DNA of 64,000 nucleotides from a virus (IMGVR_UViG_3300024319_000003:64001-128000); one strand, 5' to 3'. Shown: positions 4,387-27,836, counted from the first letter of the stretch. Numbers and translations are program-made. Notes: generated by a model from the letters alone, not told the origin.

Positions 4387-5556
4387 ATGATTAGATTAAC
4401 TGAAATAATAGGAAAACCATCACTTAAGTACCATATAGATAACAGTCTCTCTTTATATGAGAATGTCTACCGTTATTCTAGCGATAGCTTTATACAATTA
4501 TTTGCTGAAGCAAGAGACGCTTATAGAGACGGTAAAATTCAACTTAACGAAGAAGATTTAAAGTTAATAGAAACAACAGATATAGGGCTATATGGAGTAT
4601 ATGAAGGAATAAAAGTACCATTAGATTTACCTATGTTAGAAGAATCTAAATATGATAAGGAAGAAACTATTCAACAAACAATTGATAGATTAAAAGCGAG
4701 AATAGCCGACCCAAATGATGGAGGGAATGTGCCTTTTTTAACCCAAAAAATAAAAGATTTAGAAAAATCATTAGATGAATCATTTTCTCAAAAAGATTGG
4801 GATGTAAAATGGAAGTTGCCTAAAGACAATTTATTTAATGCAACTAAAACTATAAATGCAACTAATAATAGGTACAAAGCTATACGATCCTTACTAAAGG
4901 CAAAACCTACAGAATTAAAAGCCTTTGATGACACCGATAATCACCCAGCATACGATATGTCTTATGATGAGTTAATGAAATGGTTTAAAAACCTAAAAGA
5001 ACCAGTTAAAGAAGCTAAATCTATACCTGAGTATATTGTAACTAAAGACGATCACCGTAAATCAAAATTCCCTTTCCATAAACTAAGAAACAGTGAATTT
5101 AAAATTAAAATAGCTGGACAAGGTAGAGATCAGGACTACATGATTTTTTGGAAAGAAGGAGACATAGGATACTGGGAATGGGAAGCAGGTAATATGAAAA
5201 GACAGTTAAGAAGCGCTTTGCTGGCCATAGCTAAAAGAAAACTACCTATAAAAGGTCAATTAGATGAAGCAGAATACAAAGGTAAAGATGTACCTCTAAA
5301 TAAACCAAAACGTGGAGGTTCTAAAAAATTCTACGTATACACAAAGAATAAAAAAGGGAATGTTGTAAAAGTATCTTTCGGAGGTACAACAGGTTTAAAT
5401 GTTAAGATAGATGAACCTGGAGCAAGATCATCATTTGCTGCACGTCATAAATGTGCAACTAAAAAAGACAAAACAAAACCAGGATACTGGGCTTGTAATA
5501 TTGGACGTTATTGGAAATCATTAGGTGGAAAAAGAAACTTCTCAGGATATTGGTAG
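4387..5556 (+). CDS. Mosaic hypothetical protein with a basic C-terminal module common in large phages
   Basis: Modules separated by LEE/LDE/VKE/LDE; C-terminal AEYKGKDVPLNKP...SFAARHKC...GYWAC. Confidence 0.5.
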   Translation: MIRLTEIIGKPSLKYHIDNSLSLYENVYRYSSDSFIQLFAEARDAYRDGKIQLNEEDLKLIETTDIGLYGVYEGIKVPLDLPMLEESKYDKEETIQQTIDRLKARIADPNDGGNVPFLTQKIKDLEKSLDESFSQKDWDVKWKLPKDNLFNATKTINATNNRYKAIRSLLKAKPTELKAFDDTDNHPAYDMSYDELMKWFKNLKEPVKEAKSIPEYIVTKDDHRKSKFPFHKLRNSEFKIKIAGQGRDQDYMIFWKEGDIGYWEWEAGNMKRQLRSALLAIAKRKLPIKGQLDEAEYKGKDVPLNKPKRGGSKKFYVYTKNKKGNVVKVSFGGTTGLNVKIDEPGARSSFAARHKCATKKDKTKPGYWACNIGRYWKSLGGKRNFSGYW

Positions 5557-9249: not shown

Positions 9250-9952
9250 CTTTGTTTGGGATACTACTGCATCCGGAGCAGGCTTCCAAAAAAATCTAGA
9301 TAAATTACTTGCAACAGGCTACCAGGTCTATATGGTTATGGTGTATGCTCACCCTATGATTTCTTACGTTTCTAACTTTATGGCTAGGGAAAGAAATATT
9401 CCTGGCGATTCTGTATTTGCTACCTGGAGAAATGTGTATACTAAAATAGAAGACTTTAACAGACAGTTAAAAGGTAACTTATCTATCTTTGTAAGTGATA
9501 GAGGCGGTAAATATAAAAAAGAAGTTGAAGGATTTGATAAAGCTGCTAAAAGTGGCTTAAGTGGAGTAAAAGATTATTTAGAGAAATTTAATCAAGATAA
9601 TAATGTCGGCGGCTCTTCCTTCTTTGTACCAGTAGAGATGACACCTGAAGAAGAGCAACAATTTATAAAAGATGTTGGTAGTATAGATTGGGATAAAGAA
9701 AATAGATCAGAAGACAAAGCAATTAAAACTGCATTTCTAAAAGCTTACAGAAAGAACGGAGCAGGCCCAGGACAGGATAAGCTTAAAGCAGCAGTTCAAA
9801 AGTATAGAGACAGCAATATAAAAAGAAAAGGAAAAGCAGATGAAGTTCTAGATAATATTGTAGATATGATATACAATCCAACATTTCAAGAAAAATTAAA
9901 TCACTCCTCAGTAGGAGAAATAGACTCTAAAGTACAATCATTTTTAGCATGA
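9011..9952 (+). CDS. Zeta-toxin/AAA_33-like P-loop kinase with MIKLSTLILE leader
   Basis: Walker A AGGAGSGKT, NPD, FVWDTT, GYQVYMVMV...RER. Confidence 0.7.
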   Translation: MIKLSTLILEDRSAPKAIIMAGGAGSGKTYLLNQLGLDSLVQFNPDKYVEDKDHPYYNKLGPAANQTSKDAMAAAEEKTSFVWDTTASGAGFQKNLDKLLATGYQVYMVMVYAHPMISYVSNFMARERNIPGDSVFATWRNVYTKIEDFNRQLKGNLSIFVSDRGGKYKKEVEGFDKAAKSGLSGVKDYLEKFNQDNNVGGSSFFVPVEMTPEEEQQFIKDVGSIDWDKENRSEDKAIKTAFLKAYRKNGAGPGQDKLKAAVQKYRDSNIKRKGKADEVLDNIVDMIYNPTFQEKLNHSSVGEIDSKVQSFLA

Positions 9953-11517
9953 TAGCATTATACCCAGGCGCATATAAACCTCCTCATAGAGGACATTACA
10001 ACGTAGTAAAGTCATTATTAGACGGCTCATATAACGGTTCAATATATAATAAAGATAATTACAAAGAAACTGGTGCTTCACTTCTAGGTGGCAGCAACGG
10101 TGAAAAACCGAATATAGACAAGGTTATAGTTTTCGTAGGAGCAGGTGAGAGAAACGGTATATCTAAAGATGAATCAATGTCTATATGGAATACTTATGCT
10201 AAATACTTAGGTAATGTTGAGATAAAAGACGGAGGGAGCAACCCAATGTTTGCAGCCAAAGATTATGCACAAGCTAACCCTGAACAAGAATTCGCATCAG
10301 TAACAGGAATAAGAGGTGAGAAAGATTTTGTAGATTTAAGGAGAGTTACTACTTATAAAAACGCTCCCAATGTTAAAGGATTAGCACTCGCAGCAAAACC
10401 TGGGTCAACAATTAGAGCAACAGATTTTAGAAACAATATACTATCGGGTAACTTAGATAAGATTTTAGATTTTTTCCCTAAAGAGTTATCTAGAGAAGAA
10501 ATACTATCAATACTTACAGGTTTGAAAGATAAAATAGTAGCAGAAGTAATAAGCTCAAGTCTCAGCGGAATTATAGATGAATATTTTGCTCTTAACGAAA
10601 ATAACGAAGTAGAACAATTAGAGGTAGAAATAAATGAAGAAGCAGGTAAGAAACTAGAATTAAAAGATTATATAACATCTTTGACTGAATATATGTTAGA
10701 CCGTAAAATGAACATATTACCTTTACCGGAAATAAAAATTAAAAGGGACCCAATAGAAGCAAGTAACTTTTTCGGCAGAACTGCATATTACAGTCCATCA
10801 TTAAAAGAGATAGTACTTTTCGCAGAAGGAAGACACGATAAAGATATCGTTAGATCTTTTGCTCACGAAATGATTCACCATATTCAGAACATAGAAGGTA
10901 GGTTAGGGCGTATAGGTACTTCAAATACAAATGAAGATGAGTACTTAATGGAGATAGAAAAAGAAGCGTACCTATTAGGCAACATAACTTTCCGTAACTG
11001 GGAGGATAGTTTAAAAGGTTTAGAAGAAGGTCTCTGGGCTAATATTAATGCTAAGAAAAAGAAAGGAAAGAAAGCTTCTCATAAAAACTCAAAAGCGTAT
11101 AAAGCTGCTAAAAAAGCAGGAGACTCTTTAGAAAAGACTAAAAAGGAATCAATTGTAGGTGAAAATATTACAAAAACAGAATTAAACGCAATAGAAAAAT
11201 ACGCAGATAAACTTTTTATAAAGTTAGGGATAGATATAGAGTTTACAAAACACTTTTTGGACAGAGCTAACGATGACCGGAACGGTAAAACAATAACAGT
11301 ACCAGAACTAATTGGTATGTTTAAGAGGTTACATAGAAAACATGGTAAACCTCTTTCAAGATTAGATACGGATATTAACGCAGTAGTAAAAGATTTCAAC
11401 AATGATATTAACGTTCCTTTTGCAATTGATGTTACAGATGATGGTATAGATATGTACGCAAAGACTATAATGAGAAAGAAAGACTTCAAAACATCTACAC
11501 CGGTTTACACTATATAG
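9949..11517 (+). CDS. Mosaic protein: HxGH nucleotidyltransferase + HEXXH peptidase-like module + C-terminal putative RNase-like module
   Basis: YPGAYKPPHRGH...IRATDFR; AHEMIHH; IEFTKHFLDR...KTIMRK. Confidence 0.65.
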   Translation: MIALYPGAYKPPHRGHYNVVKSLLDGSYNGSIYNKDNYKETGASLLGGSNGEKPNIDKVIVFVGAGERNGISKDESMSIWNTYAKYLGNVEIKDGGSNPMFAAKDYAQANPEQEFASVTGIRGEKDFVDLRRVTTYKNAPNVKGLALAAKPGSTIRATDFRNNILSGNLDKILDFFPKELSREEILSILTGLKDKIVAEVISSSLSGIIDEYFALNENNEVEQLEVEINEEAGKKLELKDYITSLTEYMLDRKMNILPLPEIKIKRDPIEASNFFGRTAYYSPSLKEIVLFAEGRHDKDIVRSFAHEMIHHIQNIEGRLGRIGTSNTNEDEYLMEIEKEAYLLGNITFRNWEDSLKGLEEGLWANINAKKKKGKKASHKNSKAYKAAKKAGDSLEKTKKESIVGENITKTELNAIEKYADKLFIKLGIDIEFTKHFLDRANDDRNGKTITVPELIGMFKRLHRKHGKPLSRLDTDINAVVKDFNNDINVPFAIDVTDDGIDMYAKTIMRKKDFKTSTPVYTI

Positions 11518-12795: not shown

Positions 12796-13152
12796 ATGAC
12801 ACAAAAAGATTTACTTGAATCAGTACTTAAAGAATTAGTTCACATAAAAAAGCATATGCCTAACGGTGAACTAAAAATTATGCTGAAAGACGTTAAAGGA
12901 CTGAAAGATGATATGTCGGATCTCAAGTATACATTACTAAACCCAGAAGACGGTACTATAGTTAAAACCAATCAAAACTCAGCTTTCCGTAAAAGGATGG
13001 AAGATAATGAAAAAGATTTTTTCAATAAACTTCAAGAAATACAAGATTTAAAAAAATGGAAAGATAGTGTACAGAAAGCTCTTTGGATTATATTTACAGT
13101 TCTCGCTGGTGTAGTAATTAAACTATTATCAGAAGTAATACGTATACAGTAA
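12796..13152 (+). CDS. Coiled-coil protein with a single C-terminal transmembrane helix
   Basis: ALWIIFTVLAGVVIKLL; a lysis role is possible but unproven. Confidence 0.5.
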   Translation: MTQKDLLESVLKELVHIKKHMPNGELKIMLKDVKGLKDDMSDLKYTLLNPEDGTIVKTNQNSAFRKRMEDNEKDFFNKLQEIQDLKKWKDSVQKALWIIFTVLAGVVIKLLSEVIRIQ

Positions 13153-13832
13153 TGAAACAAAGTACAGTAAGAGATATAGTTAAAGAGTCATTAAGAGATT
13201 GGTTTAAAAAAGAAAAATGGGTAAGAATATCATCTTCTGGTAACATAGCAGGAGACTGTGGTACTTCAAAGAATAAAAAAAATCCGGATAGGTGCTTGCC
13301 GAAATCAAAAGCACAGAGTTTAACAAAAGGCCAAAGAGCCGCTACTGCAGCAAAGAAAAAGAAAGCAGGAAGTAAAGGAAAGACAGTCGTGAAGAATACA
13401 AAAAAAGCAAAGGTAACAAAAGAAGATTTAACAAACCTAGTAGTAGGGATGGTAAACGAAATAAAAAACCCTCAAAACTTAATTAGCTTTGGATACGATT
13501 TAGACGCTATTGAGGACGTTGTTAACCACTTAAGAAGTAAATACAAACCTGGCGTAGATTATGAACTCCATATAGGAAGAGGAGACGATTTACCTAACGC
13601 TGTAACTATTTTGAATCCAAAACTTCATAGTGATTACGATTTGAACGATATGTTAAATTATGCACAAAGCGATGAAGATAGATACGATGCTTATACTGAC
13701 GGTAATTTAAACGAGAAGAAAGACGATAGATGTACTAGATTAGCAAAACAGAAATACGACACATGGCCATCAGCTTATGCCTCAGGAGCAGTGGTAAGAT
13801 GTAGACGAGGGGATATATGGAAAGAGAAATAA
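13152..13832 (+). CDS. Basic mosaic hypothetical protein with leader
   Basis: Leader MKQSTVRDIVKE; LRDWFKKEKWV module and WPSAYASGAVVRCR module separated by VNE/LNE. Confidence 0.55.
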   Translation: MKQSTVRDIVKESLRDWFKKEKWVRISSSGNIAGDCGTSKNKKNPDRCLPKSKAQSLTKGQRAATAAKKKKAGSKGKTVVKNTKKAKVTKEDLTNLVVGMVNEIKNPQNLISFGYDLDAIEDVVNHLRSKYKPGVDYELHIGRGDDLPNAVTILNPKLHSDYDLNDMLNYAQSDEDRYDAYTDGNLNEKKDDRCTRLAKQKYDTWPSAYASGAVVRCRRGDIWKEK

Positions 13833-14273: not shown

Positions 14274-14285
14274 TATTTATTTATA
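14274..14285 (+). promoter_or_regulatory. Putative late promoter (TATTTATTTATA)
   Basis: Intergenic, upstream of ORF 14312. Confidence 0.5.
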
Positions 14286-14311: not shown

Positions 14312-16507
14312 ATGACCTATAAAGAGCTTAAAAAACGCTTAATTAAGGTAGAAACTGCTTTAAAAGATTTGAATACAAACACAGATTTAAAGCACTCCAC
14401 TACATTTGTTAAGGAAACAACAGTTAAACTCACAACCCTTAAAGAATCCATTCTTAATAAACTCTCACTACTAAAAGAAGAAGATGGAACAGTCCGCACA
14501 GATGATGAAAGAAAAGCAGAGAAGCTTACTAAACAGGGAGTTAATGTAGACTTAGTAGATAAAATAGAAGAAAACGAAGAGAACAATGTAAACTTCTCAG
14601 TTGACGATATGAGAAGTATGATAACTCAAGTAGGTAGATCACTAACTAAATGTCTAAAAACACTAGGAGATGAAGTTGCAAGAATTAAAGCACATCGTTT
14701 AGAAGAAAATTCATTTGATATACATGTTACATATAAAGGTGAACAAGGAGAAGATGAATTTGCATTTCATATTCAAAACGGTAATCTTCATTTAGCTGAT
14801 TTTTCTTTTAACAAAAAATTAGTTGATATAGGAGTGAAACCATCCGGTGAAGCATTTATAAATCAAGATGTATTAAAAAACGAACTTATTAAACACTTTA
14901 AATCAGTTGCATCGGTAAATGAAACTAAAAATATACTAAAAGAATTTACAGACCACAGCTTTAAAGGATCAGAAGTAATAGATGATGCTAACGAAAGAGG
15001 GCCTGATATGTTCGGTAAAGGTGTATTTGCTGACTTACTTCCTAAAGGAGTAGCAAGTGAAAATGCTGCCGTAGAAGCTTTAAAAGCTCATGATAAGAGT
15101 CCTATTAAAGCTAGAATGGGAAGGTATGCACCAATGTTTGTACACGTTCAGTATCATAATTTAGAGCACGAAGGTGAAAAATACCAAATGCATCAAACAC
15201 AGTACTATAACAGTAACTTTAAAGACAAAGATCCTAACTTTAACCCTGGAGTATCTAAAATTACTTTATTTAAAGACCCAGATGGAGAAGATACTAATCT
15301 AGGTACTATAATTGTTAAGACAGATGAGTACGTTCAAGATCTTAGAAATTTACCTGGATTAGGTAAAAGAGTTAGTGAAAATTTAAACGAATTAGATGCT
15401 GATAACTCAAAAGCTTTAGTAAAGAAAGCAGTAGCAGATATTAATGGAGCAATGTTTAAGTTTAGACATTCAAATCCATTAAAGATGATCGCTGCTAAAG
15501 ATAAAGACTTAAAGGTTAAATTAGATTCAATGCATAATGCTATATTTGACTTAGAAAAAGTATTAAAAGCTAAAGATTTATTCGAAGCTACTAGAAAGGA
15601 CTTAGGAATAGGTTCATCAGTATCTAAACGTAGAGCTAAAGCAGAGCTAAAGAAACCTGGAAATGATGGTTCTAAAGTATACGGATTAGATAAAGACGGT
15701 AAGAGGGTTCATATTAAAAGCATTAATGACGTAGATAAATTTAAGAAGTTTGAATTAGATGCTGATATAGCTGAAGGTAGTATGTTAAAGGAATTTGTAG
15801 GCAAAGAATTAGAAGATAGAAACGAACCTTTATATGATGCATTAGTAGCAGGGCAAGGTAAATCAGAAACAGTAGAAGGTGAAATGCTACGAGCTATAAA
15901 TAGAATAGCTTACCGTTTCTACAATGATGGAGATAAATACTTTCAAGGGTATGGGACAGAAACTGCAGGACCTGCCCACTCATTTTTAGTTAATGCCAAT
16001 CATCCTTTAAAATCAGCAATGATTAAAGTATTAGATGAACCCTCTGGAGATAGTTCTTATGAAAGAATGCTCAAAGATGCTTTAGATATGATTTTAGATT
16101 ATATTGAATCTAGACAAGGTAAATATACTCCTAATAACGTAGGTGATATATTTGATTATGAACCTGAATTTGAAGATGATGAAGATGATTACGATGATGA
16201 TCCTTGGGGATATAATGACGAAGAAGAAGAAGATTACTACAATGAAGTAAAAGGAAAGAAACTAAAAGAGTCTACAGACCTTTATCAAGATTCTTATTTT
16301 ACATTCACAAGATATGCAGGAGGCAAAGTAAACGGACCTAGCTTACAGATTACAGTGCCGAAATTAAATGGCAGTGGTTTTGACTATATACAAATCCCCG
16401 GAAGAGAAGTAAAGAGATTTGCACAAGGTGCAGTAAAATCTGCAATGGAATTCAAAGATATAAACTACCAGGGCATAGACGACAATAAAAATAATACTAG
16501 CAAATAA
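14312..16507 (+). CDS. Large mosaic protein, putative head-internal polyprotein
   Basis: Apparently unrelated modules separated by VNE/LKE/LNE/LFE/IAE/LKE. Confidence 0.5.
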   Translation: MTYKELKKRLIKVETALKDLNTNTDLKHSTTFVKETTVKLTTLKESILNKLSLLKEEDGTVRTDDERKAEKLTKQGVNVDLVDKIEENEENNVNFSVDDMRSMITQVGRSLTKCLKTLGDEVARIKAHRLEENSFDIHVTYKGEQGEDEFAFHIQNGNLHLADFSFNKKLVDIGVKPSGEAFINQDVLKNELIKHFKSVASVNETKNILKEFTDHSFKGSEVIDDANERGPDMFGKGVFADLLPKGVASENAAVEALKAHDKSPIKARMGRYAPMFVHVQYHNLEHEGEKYQMHQTQYYNSNFKDKDPNFNPGVSKITLFKDPDGEDTNLGTIIVKTDEYVQDLRNLPGLGKRVSENLNELDADNSKALVKKAVADINGAMFKFRHSNPLKMIAAKDKDLKVKLDSMHNAIFDLEKVLKAKDLFEATRKDLGIGSSVSKRRAKAELKKPGNDGSKVYGLDKDGKRVHIKSINDVDKFKKFELDADIAEGSMLKEFVGKELEDRNEPLYDALVAGQGKSETVEGEMLRAINRIAYRFYNDGDKYFQGYGTETAGPAHSFLVNANHPLKSAMIKVLDEPSGDSSYERMLKDALDMILDYIESRQGKYTPNNVGDIFDYEPEFEDDEDDYDDDPWGYNDEEEEDYYNEVKGKKLKESTDLYQDSYFTFTRYAGGKVNGPSLQITVPKLNGSGFDYIQIPGREVKRFAQGAVKSAMEFKDINYQGIDDNKNNTSK

Positions 16508-16510
16508 GAT

Positions 16511-18979
16511 ATGCATAAATTAGAAAAACTAATACTAGAAAGCTATGCTGAAGTTTTAAGAGAGGACAAAAAAGTGCTTCGCTTAGACGACTTAACTCCT
16601 GTAATGAGGAAAGCACTAGAAAAGAGATACGGTAAATCGGTAGATCCTGAACAGGATTTTGTTAGTGCAAACTTAGAGACATACTACTTTACTCATAAAA
16701 TTAATAAAGAAACAAACTCGGTTGATCACAAAGTATATGATCTCCCTTCTTTTCAAAGCCTATATTTCGGATACTCAGATATAATAGATGATGTAAGACA
16801 GTTAATGAACAGTGCCGATGTTAGAAGTGATAAAGCTGCAAGAGAGTTATTTGAACTGATCAAATCTAATTTTAGACAGATACAAAAATACCTCAGAACA
16901 GAAAGACCAGATCAATATGAACTTATGAAATCAACTAGGTCTTTAGAGGAGAACATATCAGCTCTAAAGGAATATAGGTTATCAATAGGGAGTAAAGAGG
17001 TAGCTAGAATAAATAAAGTAGGCCTAGACCCCGAAGACTGGACAGTAACTTTTGTAGACGGTACAGAAGAACCTTACATGAACCACTTAAGAGAAGTAAC
17101 TGATATGAATGACCCGGTTATGGTAAAGATAAGGCAAGCTAAGATGCATTCAGATAAAATGAAAAAATTAGATGCTTATTCAAAATCCCCTGAAGGTAGA
17201 GCTGCTGTAAGAACACAAGCTAGTGCAGAAAGAAAAGAACAAAAAGCTAGAGAGATAGTTCGTAAGTTAAAAATCAAAAGAGCACAAGTAGAAAGAGAAA
17301 TGGAAAACGATCCAGGTACCGAACCTCAAGGTGGTCCAGTATCAGATATGTACGGAGATCAATTAAATAAAATTGACAATGCTATTGAAAAAGCAGCAGG
17401 CATATACAATAAGAGAATGACCTACGACCAAGCAGTTGGTAAAGTTACTGAGATATTTGCTGATAGTACGTTTATTGATAAGCATAGAGATAGCGTAGTT
17501 GCTCATATAGAAGAGTTACTAGATGATATGGGAACATCAGAAGTTGCAATGGAATACCTTGGATGGTCTGAGGAAGAAGCAGAAGATGCTGACCACACTG
17601 TAAGAGCAGATGCAGCTAATAAGATTGCTAACGATCCAGCATTAGCTTCAGAGTTCCTAGATAAAGACGATATTGAAAAGATAAAAGCAGCTAACCTAAG
17701 TGAAGGTGAAGGAGATGATCATCACTACATTAAAGTAAAATTACACGATTATAAGAAAGCTATGGCTATCTTAGATCAAAACGTAGATCCAACTTATGTT
17801 AAGATGGAGGTTGTTGACAATGACGGAAACGGTAATGTTATTATCTACTTTATATTTAAACATGAAGCCGGTTTCGACGACATGTATGATGACTCAGAAA
17901 ACCCAGATTCAGAATTTTATCAAGAACCAGACGAAGATCCACAAGCATTCGTTTACGATGTAGTAATGGACTTAGGAGCTAACGATATAACTGTAGTAGA
18001 TTCTTCCACAGAGATGGATGAAATATTAAAGGAAGAAGAAAACAGCGACTCAGGAAAGCTAAATAAAATACAAACTTTTGGAGACCTACAGAAATTTATA
18101 AAACTTACTAAAACTAAAATAGTAGCAAAAAAAGTAGGTGGAGCACTAGATGCAGCAATAGGTTTTATACCTGGGATAGGAAACGTAAAAACAGGTATAG
18201 ATGTTATTAGAGCTTTAGCTAAAAAACAAGATGGTAAAACAACCAATACGTTTTTGGATAAAATGGATGTTGATGATAAAGCATCTGCAATAGTAGACGA
18301 TAAAGTTGAAGCTAACTTTATTAACTACATGCATAAAAGAATAGAAGATCAAGATGCTAATACAAAGTTACCTAGTAACTTTAATATGAACAGTTACTTT
18401 AATGACTTCTTATCAGCTGAATACGATAAGAGAACTATTGACGGAATCAATGAAGAGATAGGATCAGAAACAATTTTAGAAGATGCTACGGATATAATGT
18501 TAGAAAAATTTCCTACACTAAAAGCAGTGTTAATAAGACTTCAAACAGAAGACTTTAAAGAATTTGTTAACAAGATTGATTGGATATCACCGAGACCAAC
18601 GGAATTTAGAATTAACTTAACCAATGGACAGGATTACATTTTGAAGTGGACAGGTAAAGGCTTTGAAGCTCAGATACTGGGTAAAAGATACTTCTTAAAT
18701 AAGATAAATGAATTTCAACAAGCATTGGATAAGTTAGCAATTTTATATAAGGAAGGTCCAATGGGAGAACCAGAAGAACCAGCAGAACCAGCCCCAGAAA
18801 CAGATAGTGGATCATCAAGCGGAAGTGGCGGAGATTTTCCTGGAGAAGAAGGAGGAGGAGATTCCGGAGAAGATACCCCAGATGGAGATGATACAGCAGA
18901 TGCAGGAGAAGAAGAAGGAGCTGATTTAACAGATGAACCTGTTGATTTTGAAGAACCAGCAGAAGAACCAGAAGCATAA
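16511..18979 (+). CDS. Large acidic mosaic protein, putative head-internal polyprotein with leader
   Basis: MHKLEKLILE leader; LRE/LKE/VTE/LSE/INE junctions; E/P/G/D-rich tail. Confidence 0.5.
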   Translation: MHKLEKLILESYAEVLREDKKVLRLDDLTPVMRKALEKRYGKSVDPEQDFVSANLETYYFTHKINKETNSVDHKVYDLPSFQSLYFGYSDIIDDVRQLMNSADVRSDKAARELFELIKSNFRQIQKYLRTERPDQYELMKSTRSLEENISALKEYRLSIGSKEVARINKVGLDPEDWTVTFVDGTEEPYMNHLREVTDMNDPVMVKIRQAKMHSDKMKKLDAYSKSPEGRAAVRTQASAERKEQKAREIVRKLKIKRAQVEREMENDPGTEPQGGPVSDMYGDQLNKIDNAIEKAAGIYNKRMTYDQAVGKVTEIFADSTFIDKHRDSVVAHIEELLDDMGTSEVAMEYLGWSEEEAEDADHTVRADAANKIANDPALASEFLDKDDIEKIKAANLSEGEGDDHHYIKVKLHDYKKAMAILDQNVDPTYVKMEVVDNDGNGNVIIYFIFKHEAGFDDMYDDSENPDSEFYQEPDEDPQAFVYDVVMDLGANDITVVDSSTEMDEILKEEENSDSGKLNKIQTFGDLQKFIKLTKTKIVAKKVGGALDAAIGFIPGIGNVKTGIDVIRALAKKQDGKTTNTFLDKMDVDDKASAIVDDKVEANFINYMHKRIEDQDANTKLPSNFNMNSYFNDFLSAEYDKRTIDGINEEIGSETILEDATDIMLEKFPTLKAVLIRLQTEDFKEFVNKIDWISPRPTEFRINLTNGQDYILKWTGKGFEAQILGKRYFLNKINEFQQALDKLAILYKEGPMGEPEEPAEPAPETDSGSSSGSGGDFPGEEGGGDSGEDTPDGDDTADAGEEEGADLTDEPVDFEEPAEEPEA

Positions 18980-19390: not shown

Positions 19391-20791
19391 ATGAATCTTA
19401 TAGATAAAGTTTTATTAGAATGGTCCTATAAGACCAAAAAAGGGTATCCTGACATTAACAGTCAAGAGGATATGGATTTGTTTGAATCTATATTCGGTTT
19501 TAACCTTAATGAAACACCTCTTACACCAGCTGAATTAGATAAAGTAAATTCTAATACAAAAGAAAATAGAATTGATATACTAATAAGAAAAATTAAGAAC
19601 AAAGAACCTCTAGCTATAGATGATTCAGAAGATACTTTTTTAGTATATGATCCAAGAGGTGAAAAAGTAAGTGAATTAGAAAAATGGGATGTATCTAAAA
19701 AGGCAGTGACTCTTTTTAACAGAGAAGGAAATTCTATTACAACATCTAAATTAGCAAAATCAGCAGATTTTGGAGGTGGAGCAGGATCTGGAGCAGGATC
19801 AGCACAAACAGATATACAAGAATCAAGTATGTGTGCAGTTTTAGCTTTATACCAGAAACAAGGCAAATTAGAAGAGAAAGATCTTACCTCAGAAAATATA
19901 AAAAGTATTTCCAAAGATATAGAGACTACATCAAGCGTAGAGGAAATAGTAGATTATATTACTAATTCTCCCGGCTGGGCTTCTACATTTGTTAACACAG
20001 CTTCTTTATTATCTGGCTATTTAGATAAAGGGTACGAATTCCATCGAGGTTCATCATTTGTAGATTCTATATACGAAGTGTGGAAAAAAATAAAGAAAAA
20101 AAATAAATGGAGTATCAAAGATGATAAATGGAATCCATCGGATATTTGGGCAGTAAAACCAACAGGAAAAAATATTAAATTAGATAGTGAAACATTAGAA
20201 GAATATAACAACCAACTGTTAGATTTATTCAATAGTAGAACTTTAATAGGTATTTCGCTAAAGAAACTTGGTAAATCTCCAACTGTAAAAACAGTAAATA
20301 AAGAAAGAGTTTCAGAAATAGAAGTTTTAGATAGTATAATTTCTTCAGGCGGTTCTAAAGATGCTTATGTAAACACTAAATCAGGAAAAATATTACAACT
20401 TAGAACAACCGGTGGTAATTCGTTTCAAGGAGAATTGAAAGGTAAAACTGCCGCTCAAGGAAAAATAGGTGGAGGTGTACTCAAAACGTTTTTAGATAAA
20501 CAAGGATTAGGACCTATACCAACTCAGAAAGAATCTGCTAAGTTAGCTATAGAGTACACACCCTCATTTGTTAACGAATTACTCGAATTATGTAATGAAT
20601 ACTTCAGTATAACTGAAGAAGAATTAAATTCAAAAACTACTGATTGGTTAAATTCAAAGTACCAAGCATTAAAAGTAGCAAAGGTTTTAAAAACAGGTAG
20701 CAAGGATAAAGTAGAAGCAGCATTAACAGACATAGTAAATTATGCTGGTTCAAGAAGCTCTATTTCTGCTGTGTACCTAAAAGTAATGTAG
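19391..20791 (+). CDS. Putative PD-(D/E)XK-like endonuclease with leader
   Basis: QES...KWNPSDIW...IGISLKK restriction-enzyme-like spacing; N-terminal MNLIDKVLLE...FNLNE. Confidence 0.5.
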   Translation: MNLIDKVLLEWSYKTKKGYPDINSQEDMDLFESIFGFNLNETPLTPAELDKVNSNTKENRIDILIRKIKNKEPLAIDDSEDTFLVYDPRGEKVSELEKWDVSKKAVTLFNREGNSITTSKLAKSADFGGGAGSGAGSAQTDIQESSMCAVLALYQKQGKLEEKDLTSENIKSISKDIETTSSVEEIVDYITNSPGWASTFVNTASLLSGYLDKGYEFHRGSSFVDSIYEVWKKIKKKNKWSIKDDKWNPSDIWAVKPTGKNIKLDSETLEEYNNQLLDLFNSRTLIGISLKKLGKSPTVKTVNKERVSEIEVLDSIISSGGSKDAYVNTKSGKILQLRTTGGNSFQGELKGKTAAQGKIGGGVLKTFLDKQGLGPIPTQKESAKLAIEYTPSFVNELLELCNEYFSITEEELNSKTTDWLNSKYQALKVAKVLKTGSKDKVEAALTDIVNYAGSRSSISAVYLKVM

Positions 20792-20793
20792 TT

Positions 20794-22365
20794 ATGGCAA
20801 AAGACATAAAAAAAATAATAGCACAAGAGTATATCAAGTGTGCTAAAGATCCAGCATACTTTATGCGGAAATATTGTTATATACAGCACCCTACTAGAGG
20901 ACGTATCTTATTTAACCTATACCCATTTCAGGACAAAGTATTACATTTATTTAGAGATCATCAATACTTAATTACTCTTAAGTCTAGACAGTTAGGTATA
21001 TCTACCCTAGCAGCAGGTTACTCTCTGTGGCTTATGTTATTTCATAAAGATAAGAACGTACTTGCTCTAGCAACAACTCAAGCTACTGCAAGAAACTTAG
21101 TTTCTAAAACTATGTTTATGTATGATCAATTGCCAAAATGGTTGAAGCTACCTGCTTTAGAGAAAAATAAACTATCTTTAAGACTGAAGAATGGATCAAA
21201 AATTACAGCTAAATCTTCTAACGCCGATGCTGCAAGGTCAGAGGCAGTATCACTACTGCTTATCGATGAGGCAGCCTTTATTGACAACATTCAAGAAACG
21301 TTTACAGCAGCACAACAAACCTTAGCAACAGGTGGACAGTGTATGGCATTATCAACTCCTAACGGAATAGGTAACTGGTTTCATCAAACATGGGATAAAG
21401 CTGAATCAGGAGAAAACAGTTTTGTACCTATTAGACTACCTTGGACAGTTCACCCTGAAAGGAATGAGGAGTGGAGAATACAGCAAGATGCAGATCTAGG
21501 AGCAAGAATGGCAGGACAGGAATGTGATTGTGATTTCTTGGCATCTGGGGATACAGTATTTGAACCTGATGATATGTTATTTTACGAACAAACATACCAA
21601 AAAGATCCACTGGAAAAAAGAGGAGTCGACGGTAATTTATGGATATGGGAAGGAGTAGATTACTCTAAAACCTATATGGTAGTAGCAGATGTTGCGAGAG
21701 GAGACTCTGCAGATTATTCTGCATTTCATATATTTGATATTGAAAACTGTGTACAAGTAGGAGAATATAAAGGTAAACTTTCACCTAAAGATTACGGAAA
21801 CGTACTAGTAGGTATAGCATCAGAATTCAACGATGCTCTATTAGTAGTAGAAAACGCTAACATAGGTTGGGCTACAATAGAACAGATACTAGAAAGAGAA
21901 TATAAAAACCTATACTACAGCTCTAAATCACAAATGGAAACAGTAGAGTCCTACATGACTAAGTACGAAAGAGATAAACTAGTACCCGGGTTTACAATGT
22001 CGGTAAGAACTAGACCATTAGTAATAGCTAAGATGATTGAATACATCAGAGAAAAAGGAGTTACAATACAGTCTAAAAGGTTAATAGGTGAGATGAGAGT
22101 CTTTGTATGGAAAAATGGTAAACCACAAGCACAAATTAATTACAATGATGACTTACTTATAGCATGTGCTACAGCACTTTATGTAAGAGATACAGCACTA
22201 AGGTTAAGACAGCAAGGAATGGATCTAGCCAGAGCTCAACTATCATCATTCCAAAATTTAAACGCTCAAAACAAAGGAGTCATGAGATCAGTTGGAAACC
22301 AGCAAAATAATCCGTATATTGTAGATAATGGCTATGGACCCGAAGATATTTCTTGGTTACTTTAA
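20794..22365 (+). CDS. terL: Terminase large subunit (T4 gp17-like)
   Basis: YPFQ, KSRQLGIST Walker A, LLIDEAAF Walker B, STPNG coupling motif, VADVARG and NDDL nuclease residues. Confidence 0.93.
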   Translation: MAKDIKKIIAQEYIKCAKDPAYFMRKYCYIQHPTRGRILFNLYPFQDKVLHLFRDHQYLITLKSRQLGISTLAAGYSLWLMLFHKDKNVLALATTQATARNLVSKTMFMYDQLPKWLKLPALEKNKLSLRLKNGSKITAKSSNADAARSEAVSLLLIDEAAFIDNIQETFTAAQQTLATGGQCMALSTPNGIGNWFHQTWDKAESGENSFVPIRLPWTVHPERNEEWRIQQDADLGARMAGQECDCDFLASGDTVFEPDDMLFYEQTYQKDPLEKRGVDGNLWIWEGVDYSKTYMVVADVARGDSADYSAFHIFDIENCVQVGEYKGKLSPKDYGNVLVGIASEFNDALLVVENANIGWATIEQILEREYKNLYYSSKSQMETVESYMTKYERDKLVPGFTMSVRTRPLVIAKMIEYIREKGVTIQSKRLIGEMRVFVWKNGKPQAQINYNDDLLIACATALYVRDTALRLRQQGMDLARAQLSSFQNLNAQNKGVMRSVGNQQNNPYIVDNGYGPEDISWLL

Positions 22366-22407: not shown

Positions 22408-24297
22408 ATGGCTGATACTTCTCTATTTGGGAGATTAAGAACTCTCTTCTCCTCGGACGTAATAATAAGAAATGTAGGTGGCGACCAGCTTAAGGTTGCT
22501 GATATAAACAAGATTCAAACAACAGGAAATTTTGAAACAAACTCACTAGTTGATAGATTTAGTAGGTTGCACATATATAACAATAAAAATATATACAATC
22601 CAAATCTAAATTACCAGACTCTAAGAGTACAGTTATACTCTGATTACGAAGCAATGGATACTGATCCTATAATTGCATCAGCGTTAGATATTTTAGCAGA
22701 TGAAGCAACACTTAAAAGCGATCAAGGAGAAGTTCTATCAATTAAATCATCAGATGAAAATCTACAAAGAGTTCTTTATAATCTATTCTACGATGTACTA
22801 AATATAGAATTTAACTTATGGTCATGGACTAGAAACATGTGTAAATATGGAGACTTTTTCCTAAAACTAGAAGTTGCTGAAACATTTGGAGTATACAACG
22901 TCCTTCCTTATACAGTCTATAATATGGCAAGATACGAAGGATTGGATCCGGAAGACCCAGGAAAAGTTCAATTCGCAATAGACCCAGACGGTATTATGGC
23001 TTCAAATGAACCTACATACGTTCCTAAAAGAGACAGTAATGCGATAGTATTAGACAATTATGAAGTAGCTCACTTTAGGTTACTATCAGATACTAACTAC
23101 CTTCCTTATGGTAGATCATACATCGAACCAGCTAGAAAAATATTTAAACAACTTACATTAATGGAAGATGCGATGTTAATACATCGTATAATGAGAGCAC
23201 CAGAAAAGAGAACTTTCTTTGTAAACGTAGGTTCTATACCTCCTGCAGAAGTTGATCAGTTTATGCAAAAGACTATCAACACAATGAAGAAAACACCTTA
23301 TGTTGACCCTAAAACAGGTCAGTATAATTTAAAGTTCAATATGCAGAATATGATGGAAGACTTCTACGTTCCTGTAAGGGGAGGGGATGCTTCTACTAGA
23401 ATAGAAACAACTAAAGGACTGGATTATGATGGAACAAACGATATAGACTACTTACAGTCTAAAATGTTCGCCGCTCTTAAGGTACCTAAAGCATATTTTG
23501 GATATGAAGGGGATTTACAAGGAAAAGCTACTTTAGCAGCAGAAGATATAAGATTTGCTCGGACTGTAGAAAGAATACAGAGAATATTAGAATCTGAATT
23601 AACTAAGATTGCGTTAGTACATTTATATACACAAGGATTTACTGGAGAAAGTTTAACAAACTTTGAAATATCTTTAACTAATCCGTCTATTATATTTGAA
23701 CAAGAAAAAGTAGCACTGCTTAAAGAGAAGGTTGATTTAGCTAATCAAATGAAAGACTCTAAACTATTTTCAACAGATTATATATACGATAGTATATTTA
23801 ACCTATCAGAAGATAAGTACAACGAAATGAGAGATCTAGTAAGAGAAGACTCTAAACGAATCTTTAGATTAGGTCAATTAGAAGCAGAAGGAAACGATCC
23901 AGCTAAATCTGGACGTTCTTACGGTACTCCTCATGACTTAGCATCTATGTACGGTAGAAGAGCAACATCAACAGAAAAAGGAAACGGCCCAGGAGAAGTA
24001 CCTCCAGGGTATAGCGAAATAGGACCTGAAGGAGGAAGACCAAGAGAAAAAATGTCCGTTTACGGAACTAATAATGACCCATTAGGAGGTAGAGACAGAT
24101 TAGGAGTACATGGAATGCATGGAGGGTATGACTCAGATAATGAAAACGTAATGGAATCTAACAACCTTCTTACACAGAAAGTATACCATCAAATAAAAGA
24201 TTCATTTAAACAAGATAAAGAAATGGTATATGAAACAAAAAATAAAGATGAGTCTAAACTATTAGACGAGAATCAACTTAAAGATTTAGATAACTAG
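22408..24297 (+). CDS. gp20: Portal protein (T4 gp20-like)
   Basis: LMEDAMLIHRIMRAPEKRTF, MMEDFYVP, ALKVPK; follows terminase. Confidence 0.92.
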   Translation: MADTSLFGRLRTLFSSDVIIRNVGGDQLKVADINKIQTTGNFETNSLVDRFSRLHIYNNKNIYNPNLNYQTLRVQLYSDYEAMDTDPIIASALDILADEATLKSDQGEVLSIKSSDENLQRVLYNLFYDVLNIEFNLWSWTRNMCKYGDFFLKLEVAETFGVYNVLPYTVYNMARYEGLDPEDPGKVQFAIDPDGIMASNEPTYVPKRDSNAIVLDNYEVAHFRLLSDTNYLPYGRSYIEPARKIFKQLTLMEDAMLIHRIMRAPEKRTFFVNVGSIPPAEVDQFMQKTINTMKKTPYVDPKTGQYNLKFNMQNMMEDFYVPVRGGDASTRIETTKGLDYDGTNDIDYLQSKMFAALKVPKAYFGYEGDLQGKATLAAEDIRFARTVERIQRILESELTKIALVHLYTQGFTGESLTNFEISLTNPSIIFEQEKVALLKEKVDLANQMKDSKLFSTDYIYDSIFNLSEDKYNEMRDLVREDSKRIFRLGQLEAEGNDPAKSGRSYGTPHDLASMYGRRATSTEKGNGPGEVPPGYSEIGPEGGRPREKMSVYGTNNDPLGGRDRLGVHGMHGGYDSDNENVMESNNLLTQKVYHQIKDSFKQDKEMVYETKNKDESKLLDENQLKDLDN

Positions 24298-24326: not shown

Positions 24327-25181
24327 ATGAAGATAAAACATTCAAAGTTTAAAAATACCGGCCTGATTTACGAACTATTAGTAAAGCAGATAGCAGCAGA
24401 CACTTTGTCAAAAAGTGAATCACCAGCTTTAGGTATACTCAAAGAGTTTTTTGCAGGTAGCTCTACACTAGCCAAAGAATTGAAACTTTATGAGTATATA
24501 CTTAAAAATACTAATTTAGTTGAAGTAAAAGCTGAAACAGTTTTATCAACTATCACTGAAATTTCTAGAAAGCTAAATCAAAAGGCACTAAAAGAACAGA
24601 AGTATAGATTAATCTCAGAAGTTAAGAAACATTATAATATTGAAGAGTTCTTCGGTATACAAGTTAGAGATTATAAAGCACTAGCAGCTATGTACTGTTT
24701 ATTAGAAGCACAAAATTCTAGCACATTAGTTGCACCAGAATTTTTAATTAATAATAAACTTACTATTCTAGAGCACCTAACTTCTTCTAAAGTAGATAAA
24801 GATGCAGTAAAAGATACACTTATTGAAGAGTATGCTAAATACGATAAGGATTTAAGACTACTTACATATAAAATTCTTTTAGAGAAATTTAATTCCAACT
24901 ATAAAGATTTACTACCAGAACAGAAATACATACTTAAAGAGTTTATAACCTCAGTTGACTCAACTACTAGACTTAGAAACATAGTTAATGAAGAGATAGT
25001 AAAAATTAAAGAGCTTATTAGTGAACTATCTTCTAAAGTAAAGGACGAAGTAGTAAGGATAAAATTAGAGGAAGTAGTTAAATCAATAAAGACTTTAACT
25101 AAGACAGAAAAAATTACAGATAACCACCTTGTTAATCTTATGCAATATTATGATTTGGTAAATGAGATGAAATCAGTATGA
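24327..25181 (+). CDS. Helical head-module protein of unknown function
   Basis: Lies between portal and prohead protease; L/K/E-rich. Confidence 0.55.
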   Translation: MKIKHSKFKNTGLIYELLVKQIAADTLSKSESPALGILKEFFAGSSTLAKELKLYEYILKNTNLVEVKAETVLSTITEISRKLNQKALKEQKYRLISEVKKHYNIEEFFGIQVRDYKALAAMYCLLEAQNSSTLVAPEFLINNKLTILEHLTSSKVDKDAVKDTLIEEYAKYDKDLRLLTYKILLEKFNSNYKDLLPEQKYILKEFITSVDSTTRLRNIVNEEIVKIKELISELSSKVKDEVVRIKLEEVVKSIKTLTKTEKITDNHLVNLMQYYDLVNEMKSV

Positions 25182-25408
25182 AAAAAAGCACAATAAGAAA
25201 AGCTATAAAAGAAGTAATAGAAGAACTTAGCACCTCAGCAGCAGTAGGAGGGTATCAAACTCCATTTGCCTTTAGTAAAAAGAAAGGTGATAATAGAGCA
25301 ACAAAGCAAGCTGAAAAGCTAGGTTTTAAAAAAGTTAAAAATAAAAAAAGACCTTATAACACTAAAATGTTTGATTACTTAGATGAAAACAATACAAGAA
25401 AAATATAA
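25178..25408 (+). CDS. Small basic protein with leader
   Basis: MKKSTIRKAIKEVIEE followed by ...GGYQTPFAF. Confidence 0.5.
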   Translation: MKKSTIRKAIKEVIEELSTSAAVGGYQTPFAFSKKKGDNRATKQAEKLGFKKVKNKKRPYNTKMFDYLDENNTRKI

Positions 25409-27836
25409 CGCAGTTGTAGAGGGTACATTCTCTAAACAACAATTCCTTAAAGATGCTAAGAGAGAGCTATCTCAATTCCTATCTCCCTTTAACGGATTCC
25501 CAGACACAGTATCAATCCTTAAAAGTAAAGGGATTCTTTTTGAAGCTAAAAAAGAAGCTTCATTAGAGTACGAATGCCCAGTATCTCAATACTCGGTAGA
25601 GGACCTAACAAGAGGGGTAGACTTTGAATTAGAAAAAGCTGGAGTAGATTCGGCTGCTACTGTAACCAAAGAGGATAAAGATAAAGCAGAGAAAATTGCA
25701 ATCAAAAACCTTGAAAAAGATAGAATGCACTACCTTAACATACTAGCAGGAGAATCAGCAAAAGTTGATAAGCACGATAAAATGGTAGAACCAACTGATA
25801 AGAATAAAGTAGATACTTTTAACGGCATGAAAAAAGCTGATTTAAAAGAAAACTATACCAAAGAAAAGTTACTGAAAAAATTAGGTGACGCAGACGATGC
25901 TCGTATTCAAACCGGTAACGGAAAAGAATATATAATTTATAATCCTAATTCTAATAATGATGATAATGCTGCAATGTGGCATGACGATACTGTATTTGCT
26001 GTTGACCTAGATGGACAAGAAGAAGAAATAGATTATAGAGATATAGGATTAGTAATGGTAGAAGATATCAAAGAAAGTAATCAAGAAGAATCTATTGCAA
26101 ATTTTATTATAAAGTACTACTCTAACCCCAACACAGGAAAAAGTCTAATAGATGATGATATTATAGGTGACTTTTTCGCAACACACCCTGAATCAAGAGA
26201 TCAAGAACCTCAAGATGCATTAGATAATTTTCAAGAGTTCTTATCAGTAAATTACGAAATGCCTGGGGACTACATGCAAGAAGCAGAAGATTTAACACTA
26301 GAGCCTGAAGATACTGACAATCCAGATGAAACTTTAATAGCTATAGGTAGAGGATATTTAGAGGGTTTTAATAGACCTCATTCTCTAACTAACGGCGATT
26401 TAGAAATTTTAGGGAAAAAAGTAGTAGATAACCTATATAAAGGAGATCTTGAAGCAGCCAAAACACAATTTGTAGCAGAAGCTATGACTGATGATGAAAT
26501 GAAAAAGATTGCTAAGTACGGTAAAGATACAGATATGAAAGCAATTGATAAAATTTATAAATTAGGAGACAAATTTTCAACAGACTTTGACTACGACGGA
26601 ATGCTAAAAGCAGGGCTTAAACTTAAAATAAGTACTCCTTTAGATAAAATGCAAAAACTTTATGACTCTTTTGAAGATGTAAATTACCATAGAGAAAACG
26701 GACATTTAGGTAATGCTATAGACTACATACAAGATGGAGATAAAAAAGGAGCTTTAGATCACTTAAAGATGTTTAGACAAGCAGTACGTAAAACTTTAGG
26801 AGAAATGGACGAAGGAGCTGATAAGGTAAGAAAAGTAGTAGCAGAGGATAGTGATATACAGGAAAGTCGAGGAGCATTTGATTTATGCGTTCAAGGAATT
26901 CAAGATATCGCCACAGATGGAGATGTTAGCGAGAAAGATGCTGCTATGGAAATGATGATAGCAATTGCTGATAAGTATGATTTTAATCTAGCAGGATTAG
27001 AGTCTCAACTGTTCCATGGAGATGATTCAATTAACGAAGGTAGAAGAAGAAAGACTAAAGGAGGTAAAGTAGTAACTGAAAACGACTACGAAACTGGAGG
27101 ATATGTTGAGAGTATGGGACCTTTATTTGATAAAGGAGTTAATATGCTAATCAAGGCTTGGGAAGAATGGAAAATGGGTCCAATGACAGAACCAGGAATG
27201 GTAGAGTTTGCTAAAAAAGATGTATTGACATACCTAGAAACTCAATTTATGGTAGAAAATCTTGAAGAAGCTAAAGGTAAAGATCACGATGGAGATGGAG
27301 ATGTAGATGGAGATGATTATATGGCTAGTAAAGATGCTGCTATTAAAAAAGCAATGGGCAAGGAGAAGGTAGTTAAAGAAAATATTAAATCTATAATTGT
27401 TAAGGTATTAGAAGAAGGGGTAGTAAATGAAGCTGCAACAAATGCATTAGCAGATTTCTCTGAAACATACGGAGGATATGAAGGAATGAAACAATCAATT
27501 ATAAATCTTCAAGATGTTGTAACAGATATTGAAGCATACTACGATAAAACAAGAAGTAAGATTCAGAAAGTATATGACACTTTAGGTGATATTAGGAATG
27601 AAGAAGGTCTAAAAGTAGGAGGATTTTTAGCTCCTGCAATAGAGCAAGCATTTAATAAGGACTTAAGACCAGCAATTAAAGGTGGATTCACAAAAGGACT
27701 AACACAACCTAAAGTAAAAATGATATCACAGAAAGATATTGAAACACAAAATCCTCTAGGAGAAGTAGAAAAAGAAACGGTATACTCAAGACCTACAGTT
27801 AATGGAACTTTACAAGAAAATAAAAAAAGAAAATAA
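25383..27836 (+). CDS. Large acidic mosaic protein, putative prohead core/internal polyprotein
   Basis: MKTIQE start; many hydrophobic-x-E sites; DHDGDGDVDGDDY loop; located in the head module. Confidence 0.5.
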   Translation: MKTIQEKYNAVVEGTFSKQQFLKDAKRELSQFLSPFNGFPDTVSILKSKGILFEAKKEASLEYECPVSQYSVEDLTRGVDFELEKAGVDSAATVTKEDKDKAEKIAIKNLEKDRMHYLNILAGESAKVDKHDKMVEPTDKNKVDTFNGMKKADLKENYTKEKLLKKLGDADDARIQTGNGKEYIIYNPNSNNDDNAAMWHDDTVFAVDLDGQEEEIDYRDIGLVMVEDIKESNQEESIANFIIKYYSNPNTGKSLIDDDIIGDFFATHPESRDQEPQDALDNFQEFLSVNYEMPGDYMQEAEDLTLEPEDTDNPDETLIAIGRGYLEGFNRPHSLTNGDLEILGKKVVDNLYKGDLEAAKTQFVAEAMTDDEMKKIAKYGKDTDMKAIDKIYKLGDKFSTDFDYDGMLKAGLKLKISTPLDKMQKLYDSFEDVNYHRENGHLGNAIDYIQDGDKKGALDHLKMFRQAVRKTLGEMDEGADKVRKVVAEDSDIQESRGAFDLCVQGIQDIATDGDVSEKDAAMEMMIAIADKYDFNLAGLESQLFHGDDSINEGRRRKTKGGKVVTENDYETGGYVESMGPLFDKGVNMLIKAWEEWKMGPMTEPGMVEFAKKDVLTYLETQFMVENLEEAKGKDHDGDGDVDGDDYMASKDAAIKKAMGKEKVVKENIKSIIVKVLEEGVVNEAATNALADFSETYGGYEGMKQSIINLQDVVTDIEAYYDKTRSKIQKVYDTLGDIRNEEGLKVGGFLAPAIEQAFNKDLRPAIKGGFTKGLTQPKVKMISQKDIETQNPLGEVEKETVYSRPTVNGTLQENKKRK

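Follow-up and report, generated by a model that had tools for sequence, protein, structure and literature searches.

Shuffled modules with hydrophobic-x-Glu joints in two adjacent reading frames of a marine T4-like phage: candidate carrier polyproteins for the prohead protease

The DNA considered here, IMGVR_UViG_3300024319_000003:64001-128000 (64,000 nucleotides (nt) of viral sequence, the whole of which is called the window), comes from a marine T4-like myophage that encodes a portal (gp20), a capsid protein (gp23) and a prohead protease (S77/gp21). Directly 5' of the large terminase (TerL), portal and head genes lie two adjacent open reading frames (ORFs), ORF A and ORF B, whose products (P0001 and P0002) form the subject of this report. 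A first-pass annotation made from the sequence alone had described two giant mosaic ORFs, and both exist, at 14312-16507 and 16511-18979, on the + strand that carries all large ORFs of the window. Their parts are listed below in amino acids (aa), together with the predicted local distance difference test (pLDDT) of the models and the ends of high-scoring segment pairs (HSPs); a hyphen within a motif marks a presumed cut after Glu.

14312-16507, + strand: ORF A (P0001), putative mosaic polyprotein, 731 aa
14312-14923, + strand: module A1, aa 1-204, conserved at the N-terminus of every ORF A, ending KHFKS(L/V)(N/S)E
14912-14944, + strand: junction 1, tandem site SVNE-TKNILKE, aa 201-211; 13 HSP ends here, pLDDT <50 at 198-206
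14945-15379, + strand: module A2, aa 212-356, alpha/beta, pLDDT >90
15368-15391, + strand: junction 2, RVSE-NLNE, aa 353-360; pLDDT <50 at aa 354-361
15392-15586, + strand: module A2b, aa 361-425, helical, ending DLFE; helices at pLDDT 60-79
15587-15775, + strand: module A3, aa 426-488, from ATRKDLG to ELDADIAE
15764-15793, + strand: junction 4, tandem site DIAE-GSMLKE, aa 485-494; pLDDT <50 at aa 486-492
15794-16270, + strand: module A4, aa 495-653, helical core and acidic tail, pLDDT 92-98
16271-16504, + strand: module A5, aa 654-731
16511-18979, + strand: ORF B (P0002), putative mosaic polyprotein, 822 aa, beginning 3 nt past the ORF A stop
16511-16564, + strand: B0 leader, aa 1-18, MHKLEKLILE-SYAEVLRE, two sites, a candidate capsid-targeting leader
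16565-17095, + strand: modules B1 (aa 19-154) and B1b (aa 155-195), with sites ALKE154 and HLRE195
17096-17452, + strand: module B2, aa 196-314, ending KVTE
17453-17704, + strand: module B3, aa 315-398, ending NLSE; pLDDT 85-90
17705-18034, + strand: module B4, aa 399-508, from GEGDDHHYIKV to MDE-ILKE
18035-18481, + strand: module B5, aa 509-657, ending GINE-EIGSETILE
18482-18976, + strand: module B6, aa 658-822, conserved C-terminal module

Relatives were collected by a TerL-based scan of IMG/VR, which found at least 595 related stretches; the best 80, with a TerL 88-100% identical to that of the window, were kept. An adjacent pair of large ORFs occupies the same place in every locus with enough upstream DNA, with lengths of 618-1342 aa for ORF A and 338-869 aa for ORF B (one locus has three ORFs), and tblastn finds segments of P0001 and P0002 reordered and also lying in the partner ORF. 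The order in one locus (L018), for instance, is A 1-199, B 406-523, A 494-620 and A 649-720 in the first frame, followed by B 1-318, A 410-488, B 501-648 and B 646-761 in the second, which in terms of modules gives A1, B4, A4 and A5 and then B0-B2, A3, B5 and B6. Even a phage whose TerL is 100% identical (L003) lacks B 538-643 (module B5) and apparently, as inferred from tblastn coordinates, A 654-731 (module A5), the identity to the window being 77-79% over the N-terminal part shared in each ORF and 89% in B6. Segment clustering of 31 complete proteins yielded 18 recurrent families and 34 singletons, and only three positions are fixed: ORF A opens with A1, ORF B has B1 close to its start, and B6 comes last. 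In the closest isolate, Flavobacterium phage vB_FspM_immuto (major capsid protein (MCP) identity 68.6%), one fused 841-aa ORF, gp079, replaces the pair; it begins like A1 (E=7e-8), contains a short stretch resembling B2 and an internal B0 motif, and ends in B6. In a library of 1.84 billion proteins, 1420 clusters at 50% identity match at least one P0001 module, and A2 and A4 stand at any position in proteins of 106-1486 aa; no Pfam domain or informative name appears among 120 listed of 362 ORF B relatives. Modules are gained, lost, reordered and swapped between the two ORFs, with breaks at the sites listed beforehand, as the first-pass annotation had anticipated; rather than being colinear over their full length, the relatives are clearly shuffled.

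Individual modules differ widely in their distribution. A1 always starts at residue 1 (37-67% identity among relatives), and the module that follows it differs in nearly every locus. A2 is rich in invariant His, Tyr and Asn and keeps RVSE or HMEE at its end, A2b is confined among 15 loci to L031 and L039, and A3 sits in ORF B in L018. The A4 core carries an invariant NDGD...GYG.ETAGPAH, its D/E/Y acidic tail ends YYNE-VKGKKLKE, and the module is placed in ORF B in L055. B1 occurs in all ORF B relatives, starting anywhere from residue 19 to 186, and B2 belongs to ORF A in six loci (L031, L039, L042, L059, L062 and L081) and to ORF B elsewhere. B3 is rare (0/14 other complete loci, 9/156 database relatives), as is B5 among those relatives (9/156), and B4 lies in ORF A in every other complete locus where it is found (directly after A1 in a few), while the window has it in ORF B. 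B6, always last in ORF B, runs from DATD...ILYKEGP through a Gly-rich stretch to a conserved acidic end, EPVDFEEPAEEPEA, and shares 44% identity with the C-terminal end of gp079 from immuto (E=9e-32). The B0 leader is kept at the N-terminus in 60/156 relatives, and its internal copy in gp079 lies directly ahead of the B6 module. No paralogy was found between ORF A and ORF B. As a side observation, a Cys-rich mini-module of 33-36 aa, ATCCG(K/R)CGRVHVKG..., closes ORF A in L031, L039, L042, L055, L059 and L062, again preceded by IKE, VKE, LTE, IDE or LKE; the ORF A of the window is without it, and immuto gp079 has a related THVKGTPC stretch.

The motif at the joints is hydrophobic-x-Glu, [LIVM]xE, and every site that had been read from the two ORFs is present: SVNE201-204, ILKE208-211, RVSE353-356, NLNE357-360, DLFE422-425, DIAE485-488, MLKE491-494, YYNE642-645 and KLKE650-653 in P0001, and LILE7-10, VLRE15-18, ALKE151-154, HLRE192-195, KVTE311-314, NLSE395-398, ILKE505-508 and GINE645-648 in P0002. 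The accompanying caveat that x-x-E triplets are common in acidic proteins was fair, as bulk LxE is enriched only 1.2-fold, so that the case rests on where the sites stand and not on their number. Their positions are confirmed to be far from random. With the window proteins set against 29 relatives, 58% (ORF A) and 65% (ORF B) of homology breakpoints fall within 8 aa of a listed site, compared with 15-16% under circular shifts (p~0.01 each). Over 220 junctions in 31 proteins, [LIVM]xE occurs within 3 aa of 44% of junctions versus 15% of random positions, [LIVM]xD is depleted (6% versus 15% random) and [LIVM]xK shows no enrichment; the depletion of Asp at P1 fits the report that this residue blocks processing in T4 (PMC9026906).

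Hydrophobic-x-E stands directly ahead of nearly all module starts examined, regardless of the upstream sequence. It precedes A2 in 5/5 cases (LKE or IKE), A3 in 6/6 contexts (LFE, LKE, MNE, MEE, LTE, MDE), A4 in 5/5, A5 in 8/8 contexts (LKE, VNE, INE, IYE or MNE), B2 in 14/14 copies and B6 in 14/15 loci, there as [VI]LE. The pattern extends to divergent copies (44-80% identity to those of the window): in 39 clusters A4 is mostly preceded by hydrophobic-x-E, and in 39 clusters A2 always has [LIV]-x-E ahead of it, with the P1 Glu an invariant column, P2 varying and the sequence further upstream unrelated and unalignable. Many sites are also doubled at a distance of 4-9 residues (SVNE-TKNILKE, RVSE-NLNE, DIAE-GSMLKE, YYNE-VKGKKLKE, MDE-ILKE and GINE-EIGSETILE).

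AlphaFold2 models, built from alignments with bridging rows that were checked locally, predict an architecture of domains and linkers. The model of P0001 190-660 has a mean pLDDT of 81.5 and a predicted template-modelling score (pTM) of 0.43, a combination that beads on a string would give, and it comprises four domains: A2, alpha/beta (>90), A2b, helical, A3, and A4, helical (92-98). Values below 50 are restricted to aa 198-206, 354-361, 428-434 and 486-492 and to the acidic tail at 633-657; such linkers (padded by 3 aa, 18% of residues) hold 7/9 [LIVM]xE (p=1.7e-4), 0/13 [LIVM]xD and 2/20 [LIVM]xK. The model of P0002 is poor (mean pLDDT 58), with dips at 14-19, 140-155, 197-202, 302-314, 397-402, 502-518 and 638-697; 7/8 listed sites lie at these dips (HLRE195 is 2 aa before that at 197-202 and LILE10 is outside), and 12/16 sites fall in low-pLDDT segments (p=0.017). 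Separate domains joined by low-confidence linkers at the sites are what had been expected of structure prediction.

The presumed cutter is encoded in the same genome, among the following head genes.

20794-22365, + strand: T4-type large terminase (TerL)
22408-24297, + strand: gp20-type portal (PF07230, E=1.7e-69)
28483-29061, + strand: T4 gp21-family prohead protease, presumed cutter (PF03420 Peptidase_S77, E=6.5e-36; phrog_207, E=3e-54)
29790-30824, + strand: very acidic scaffold-like protein
30860-32464, + strand: gp23-type capsid protein, MCP (PF07068, E=1e-78; the Pfam Gp23 match begins at residue 75)
31019-31030, + strand: IVAE54-57 in the MCP propeptide, presumed maturation cut; QIV(A/S)E invariant in 9 relatives

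The Pfam match of the protease to the gp21 (S77) family is above cutoff. The scaffold and the MCP N-terminus had been said to carry the same type of site, and both do, with QIVAE53-57 in the MCP and 7.3 [LIVM]xE per 100 aa in the scaffold. The invariant QIV(A/S)E lies about 40 residues ahead of a conserved VQPMN motif, a position comparable to that of the gp23 cut in T4. In T4, gp21 cuts after Glu in L/I-x-E (PMC9026906), and the internal proteins bear N-terminal capsid-targeting sequences of 10-19 aa that end in a gp21 site (PMC9026906, PMC5694885) and that have been proposed as an evolutionary route by which T4-like phages load varied head proteins (PMC9026906; also PMC5694885). The window's protease itself carries LIE at residues 5-7 and, 21 residues short of its C-terminus, LNE. 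Both are possible self-processing sites of the kind considered for T4 gp21, which has LIE-9 near its N-terminus (PMC9026906).

These data also bear on a reading in which ORF A and ORF B encode uncleaved multidomain 'polyvalent' virion or early proteins and hydrophobic-x-Glu is a favoured linker or strand-start sequence. Mosaic multidomain phage proteins beside virion genes are a known class (PMC5512222), and the Glu of LKE211 starts the first strand of A2 in the AlphaFold2 model. This reading is nevertheless improbable given that the motif matches the known specificity of the encoded protease, that Asp is specifically avoided at P1, that sites are often doubled a few residues apart, that the motif begins every module family whatever its fold, and that Pfam detects no embedded peptidase or known conflict domain in either ORF.

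Modules of the same pool are found in further genes. T4 core genes 67 and 68 lie between portal and protease, and the window has a third mosaic frame there.

25383-27836, + strand: third mosaic ORF, 817 aa, between portal and protease, starting MKTIQEKYNAVVE up to a presumed cut

The architecture of this ORF is variable among relatives, and its modules 111-230, 302-373, 390-476 and 492-600 recur within A-type polyproteins that other phages encode. Pieces are shared with the pool by the ORF that follows (27836-28462) as well. Further upstream, aa 98-184 of ORF 13152 (13152-13832), bounded by VNE and LNE, recur inside 42 polyproteins, and aa 353-405 of ORF 9949 (9949-11517) are found in ORF A of L081 and L031. 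ORF 4387 (4387-5556) has conserved ends and a variable middle, which in its homologue P0149 is replaced by A4 flanked by LNE and INE. A2 also exists as a complete stand-alone gene of 170 aa, with a 20-aa leader ending LKE, within an 8.4-kb contig of small phage-like genes, and as a second stand-alone gene of 281 aa with a short leader that likewise ends LKE; the leaders ahead of these modules are similar to B0.

The neighbourhood is also where the main alternative has to be weighed, namely that the pair serves as disposable prohead core or scaffold filler like T4 gp22, gp67 and gp68, helping to build or fill the prohead, cut at the same sites and gone before DNA packaging, with nothing delivered and with a module content that drifts because bulk and charge are all that counts. 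Such a role, which we consider unlikely though the least so of the alternatives, would suit ORFs that adjoin head genes and have modules in common with the ORF occupying the place of T4 genes 67/68, chains that are highly charged with long acidic tails, and tandem sites that resemble the redundant propeptide-clearing cuts of phiKZ and SPN3US (PMC9026906, PMC10052503). It sits poorly with modules that are compact and globular and keep many invariant residues across hundreds of 50%-identity clusters, unlike low-complexity scaffolds, and that are also encoded singly, by small genes of their own. The genome already encodes, moreover, an acidic scaffold of typical kind (29790-30824) and a 284-aa post-portal protein rich in sites. 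The latter (24327-25181, right after the portal) is conserved, contains 7.0 [LIVM]xE per 100 aa against 7.3 in the scaffold, and probably represents a core protein of the prohead destined for degradation.

Short leaders set the two ORFs apart, ORF B having a conserved one of 18 aa with two sites and ORF A no clear short one, its 200-aa A1 module perhaps taking the place of a short capsid-targeting leader. Elsewhere in the region, 21/29 ORFs in the span 3964-30860 have an [LIVM]xE ending at residue 5-18, compared with 2/20 in the rest of the window (tail genes and others; Fisher p=2.4e-5), and against an internal control rate of 0.25 the excess has a binomial p=1e-7. Examples are MIKLSTLILE (9011), MKLASIILE (29061), MKLTNIIFE (5797) and MNLIDKVLLE (19391), and from such N-termini many small proteins of the non-structural region may carry leaders of the capsid-targeting type. 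The last example belongs to a 466-aa ORF just 5' of TerL (19391-20791; phrog_1462, unknown function), in which the first 35-53 residues are kept among relatives (up to ~110 in one locus) and the remainder and the ORF length (325-507 aa) vary.

An 8-mer upstream of ORF A links the pair with the head genes.

14278-14285, + strand: TATTTATA, promoter-like motif, 34 nt upstream of ORF A

The window holds 14 copies of TATTTATA on the + strand (positions include 14278, 22372, 24302, 29695, 33242, 38147, 54872 and 59160) and 1 on the - strand, and 11 copies lie 12-95 nt upstream of gene starts, among them those of ORF A, the portal, ORF 24327, the scaffold, and neck and tail genes, making it a candidate promoter element of the phage. 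Its reverse complement is TATAAATA, the T4 late -10 box. The T4 late promoter TATAAATA was itself considered and set aside, as it is not enriched in gene direction.

Leaders and promoter motif together bear on a further possibility, that ORF A and ORF B are unpackaged cytoplasmic polyproteins which a phage or host Glu-specific protease cuts into small host-takeover proteins. Many upstream non-structural ORFs start with short [LIVM]xE leaders, which could mean a general processing system; on the other hand, T4-family prohead proteases act, according to the literature, inside the prohead as it matures (PMC9026906), the pair and the head genes have the promoter-like motif and the module pool in common, and no second protease turned up in searches of the window, which did not cover every ORF. 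We regard this possibility as very unlikely.

With regard to the phage itself, the ORF B protein is found unchanged on a 167.7 kb contig, so the genome measures at least 167.7 kb, and the host is probably a member of the Flavobacteriia.

Searches for fold and function gave little. Pfam and PHROG scans of both ORFs returned no family at E<=0.01, blastn against phage genomes gave no match, and tblastn matched just one module in each of a 595-kb uncultured phage (A4) and immuto. Profile searches of A4 and A2 against PDB sequences stayed at chance level (E>=0.03), an ESM Atlas search by features gave no usable match and one by shape reached TM<=0.34 over the whole model, and Foldseek against PDB with both models gave nothing at E<=0.001, the weak ferredoxin-like rows from the ORF B model probably stemming from module B4. 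A wide VIA-align search returned only generic helical hairpins and bundles (Z<=7.4) and barely probed the A2 domain, whereas two unnamed stand-alone viral proteins of 153-176 aa were found in BFVD. Multi-domain queries are weak tests, so the lack of matches does not show that the folds are new. Full-text literature searches found no description of such polyproteins.

Taken together, ORF A and ORF B are probably capsid-targeted carrier polyproteins that the prohead protease cuts inside a T4-like phage head. Each chain would consist of modules of 40-200 aa that fold independently, strung together with one or two hydrophobic-x-Glu sites between neighbours, its conserved end modules serving for targeting and its variable inner modules as cargo. 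The pair would be transcribed with the head genes from the shared promoter-like motif; the conserved ends (A1; the B0 leader and B1; the acidic C-terminus of B6) would bring the chain into the prohead core; the protease would cut after each junction Glu, leaving about 6-8 small proteins per chain together with spacer peptides; and some products would presumably remain with the DNA and pass into the host, like T4 internal proteins. The predicted pieces are ~6 of 7-23 kDa from ORF A and 8 of 2-18 kDa from ORF B, of mixed charge. Among the parts of this proposal, cleavage by the prohead protease is quite likely, and packaging followed by delivery to the host stands at about even odds. The first-pass reading of cassette arrays that release effectors is partly supported: modules that break at the sites, the linkers and the S77 protease speak for it. 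The modular build, the shuffling and the motif at the joints can be taken as shown; cutting, capsid localisation, ejection and the roles of the modules are inferred.

Several points weigh against the proposal. The evidence for both cleavage and presence in the virion is indirect. ORF A has no obvious short leader, and Pfam and PHROG (E<=0.01) detect in neither ORF any similarity to T4 IPI, IPII, IPIII or Alt; as no module matches a known family or fold, the label 'effector' is unsupported. Some [LIVM]xE lie inside domains (LDE576, LFE115, IEE335), and B4, although mostly preceded by hydrophobic-x-E, also starts after KKE and KNE, which lack the hydrophobic P3. The junction Glu is aligned with each module, and part of its conservation could therefore reflect shared ancestry. 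Lastly, the low confidence of the ORF B model makes the linker test for that ORF weak.

With each module bringing its own cut site, its insertion, deletion or transfer between carriers would leave the other modules intact, which would account for the very fast module turnover. ORF 25383 and others are probably also capsid-targeted carriers. More tentatively, and with somewhat less than an even chance of being right, the genome as a whole may operate a 'plug-and-cut' cargo system, found throughout an abundant marine clade, in which the protease is a universal unpacker and the capsid delivers a rapidly reprogrammable protein set; dozens of small folded modules, each with a head-protease site of its own, would pass freely among at least five carrier genes of the window (4387, 13152, ORF A, ORF B and 25383/27836) and to and from single genes that bear leaders of the capsid-targeting type. 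Were the proposal true, the three-residue signal of the maturation protease at every joint would make modules freely portable and would account for an injected arsenal that T4-like phages replace at a pace far beyond that of change in their structural genes; modules do differ between phages with an identical terminase protein. The at least 1,400 clusters sharing ORF A modules would then be candidate first-minute takeover or anti-defence proteins of ocean Bacteroidota phages, and engineering would gain a natural template for packing several cargo proteins, all encoded by one gene, into T4-type capsids.

Three known systems invite comparison. Polyvalent proteins are, like the pair, large, mosaic and multidomain, encoded beside virion genes in fast-changing combinations (PMC5512222), and a published proposal has them packaged and then set free domain by domain (Iyer et al. 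2017, PMC5512222); the pair does show the 2-15 distinct domains, variable architecture and location near virion genes by which they are recognised. Polyvalent proteins are defined, however, by conflict domains (methylases, ADP-ribosyltransferases (ARTs), ArdC, nucleases), of which none was found in ORF A or ORF B, and their release is thought to proceed via an embedded peptidase (MPTase), whereas here it would occur in trans through the maturation protease.

In phiKZ, 201phi2-1 and SPN3US, a gp21-related protease makes many post-Glu cuts, sites are redundant and the head holds a large protein cargo (PMC9026906, PMC5694885, PMC10052503). The motif of the phiKZ/SPN3US type is S/A-x-E or A-x-E, whereas L, I, V or M occupies P3 here, as in T4; cutting in those phages serves mostly to strip long propeptides from a single mature protein rather than to separate a row of interchangeable folded modules, and no module shuffling of the present kind has been described for such systems.

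The third counterpart is provided by the T4 internal proteins (IPI, IPII, IPIII and Alt), which depend on the same protease family (Pfam S77) and the same cut signal (L/I-x-E there, L/I/V/M-x-E here), and which, like B0 and the stand-alone A2 genes, have short N-terminal leaders ending in that signal; the single-gene form of A2 has the very layout of an internal protein with its 10-19 aa capsid-targeting sequence (PMC9026906, PMC5694885). T4-type internal protein genes are also hypervariable among close relatives (PMC9026906), as is the gene content here. T4 internal proteins, however, are single small genes with one leader each, whereas up to ~10 modules share a reading frame here, with a site at every joint and modules that move between several carrier genes, many of them acidic and not basic. 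The logic of the arrangement is shared with T4's internal proteins, the difference being its use of concatenated, interchangeable modules without sequence kinship to them.

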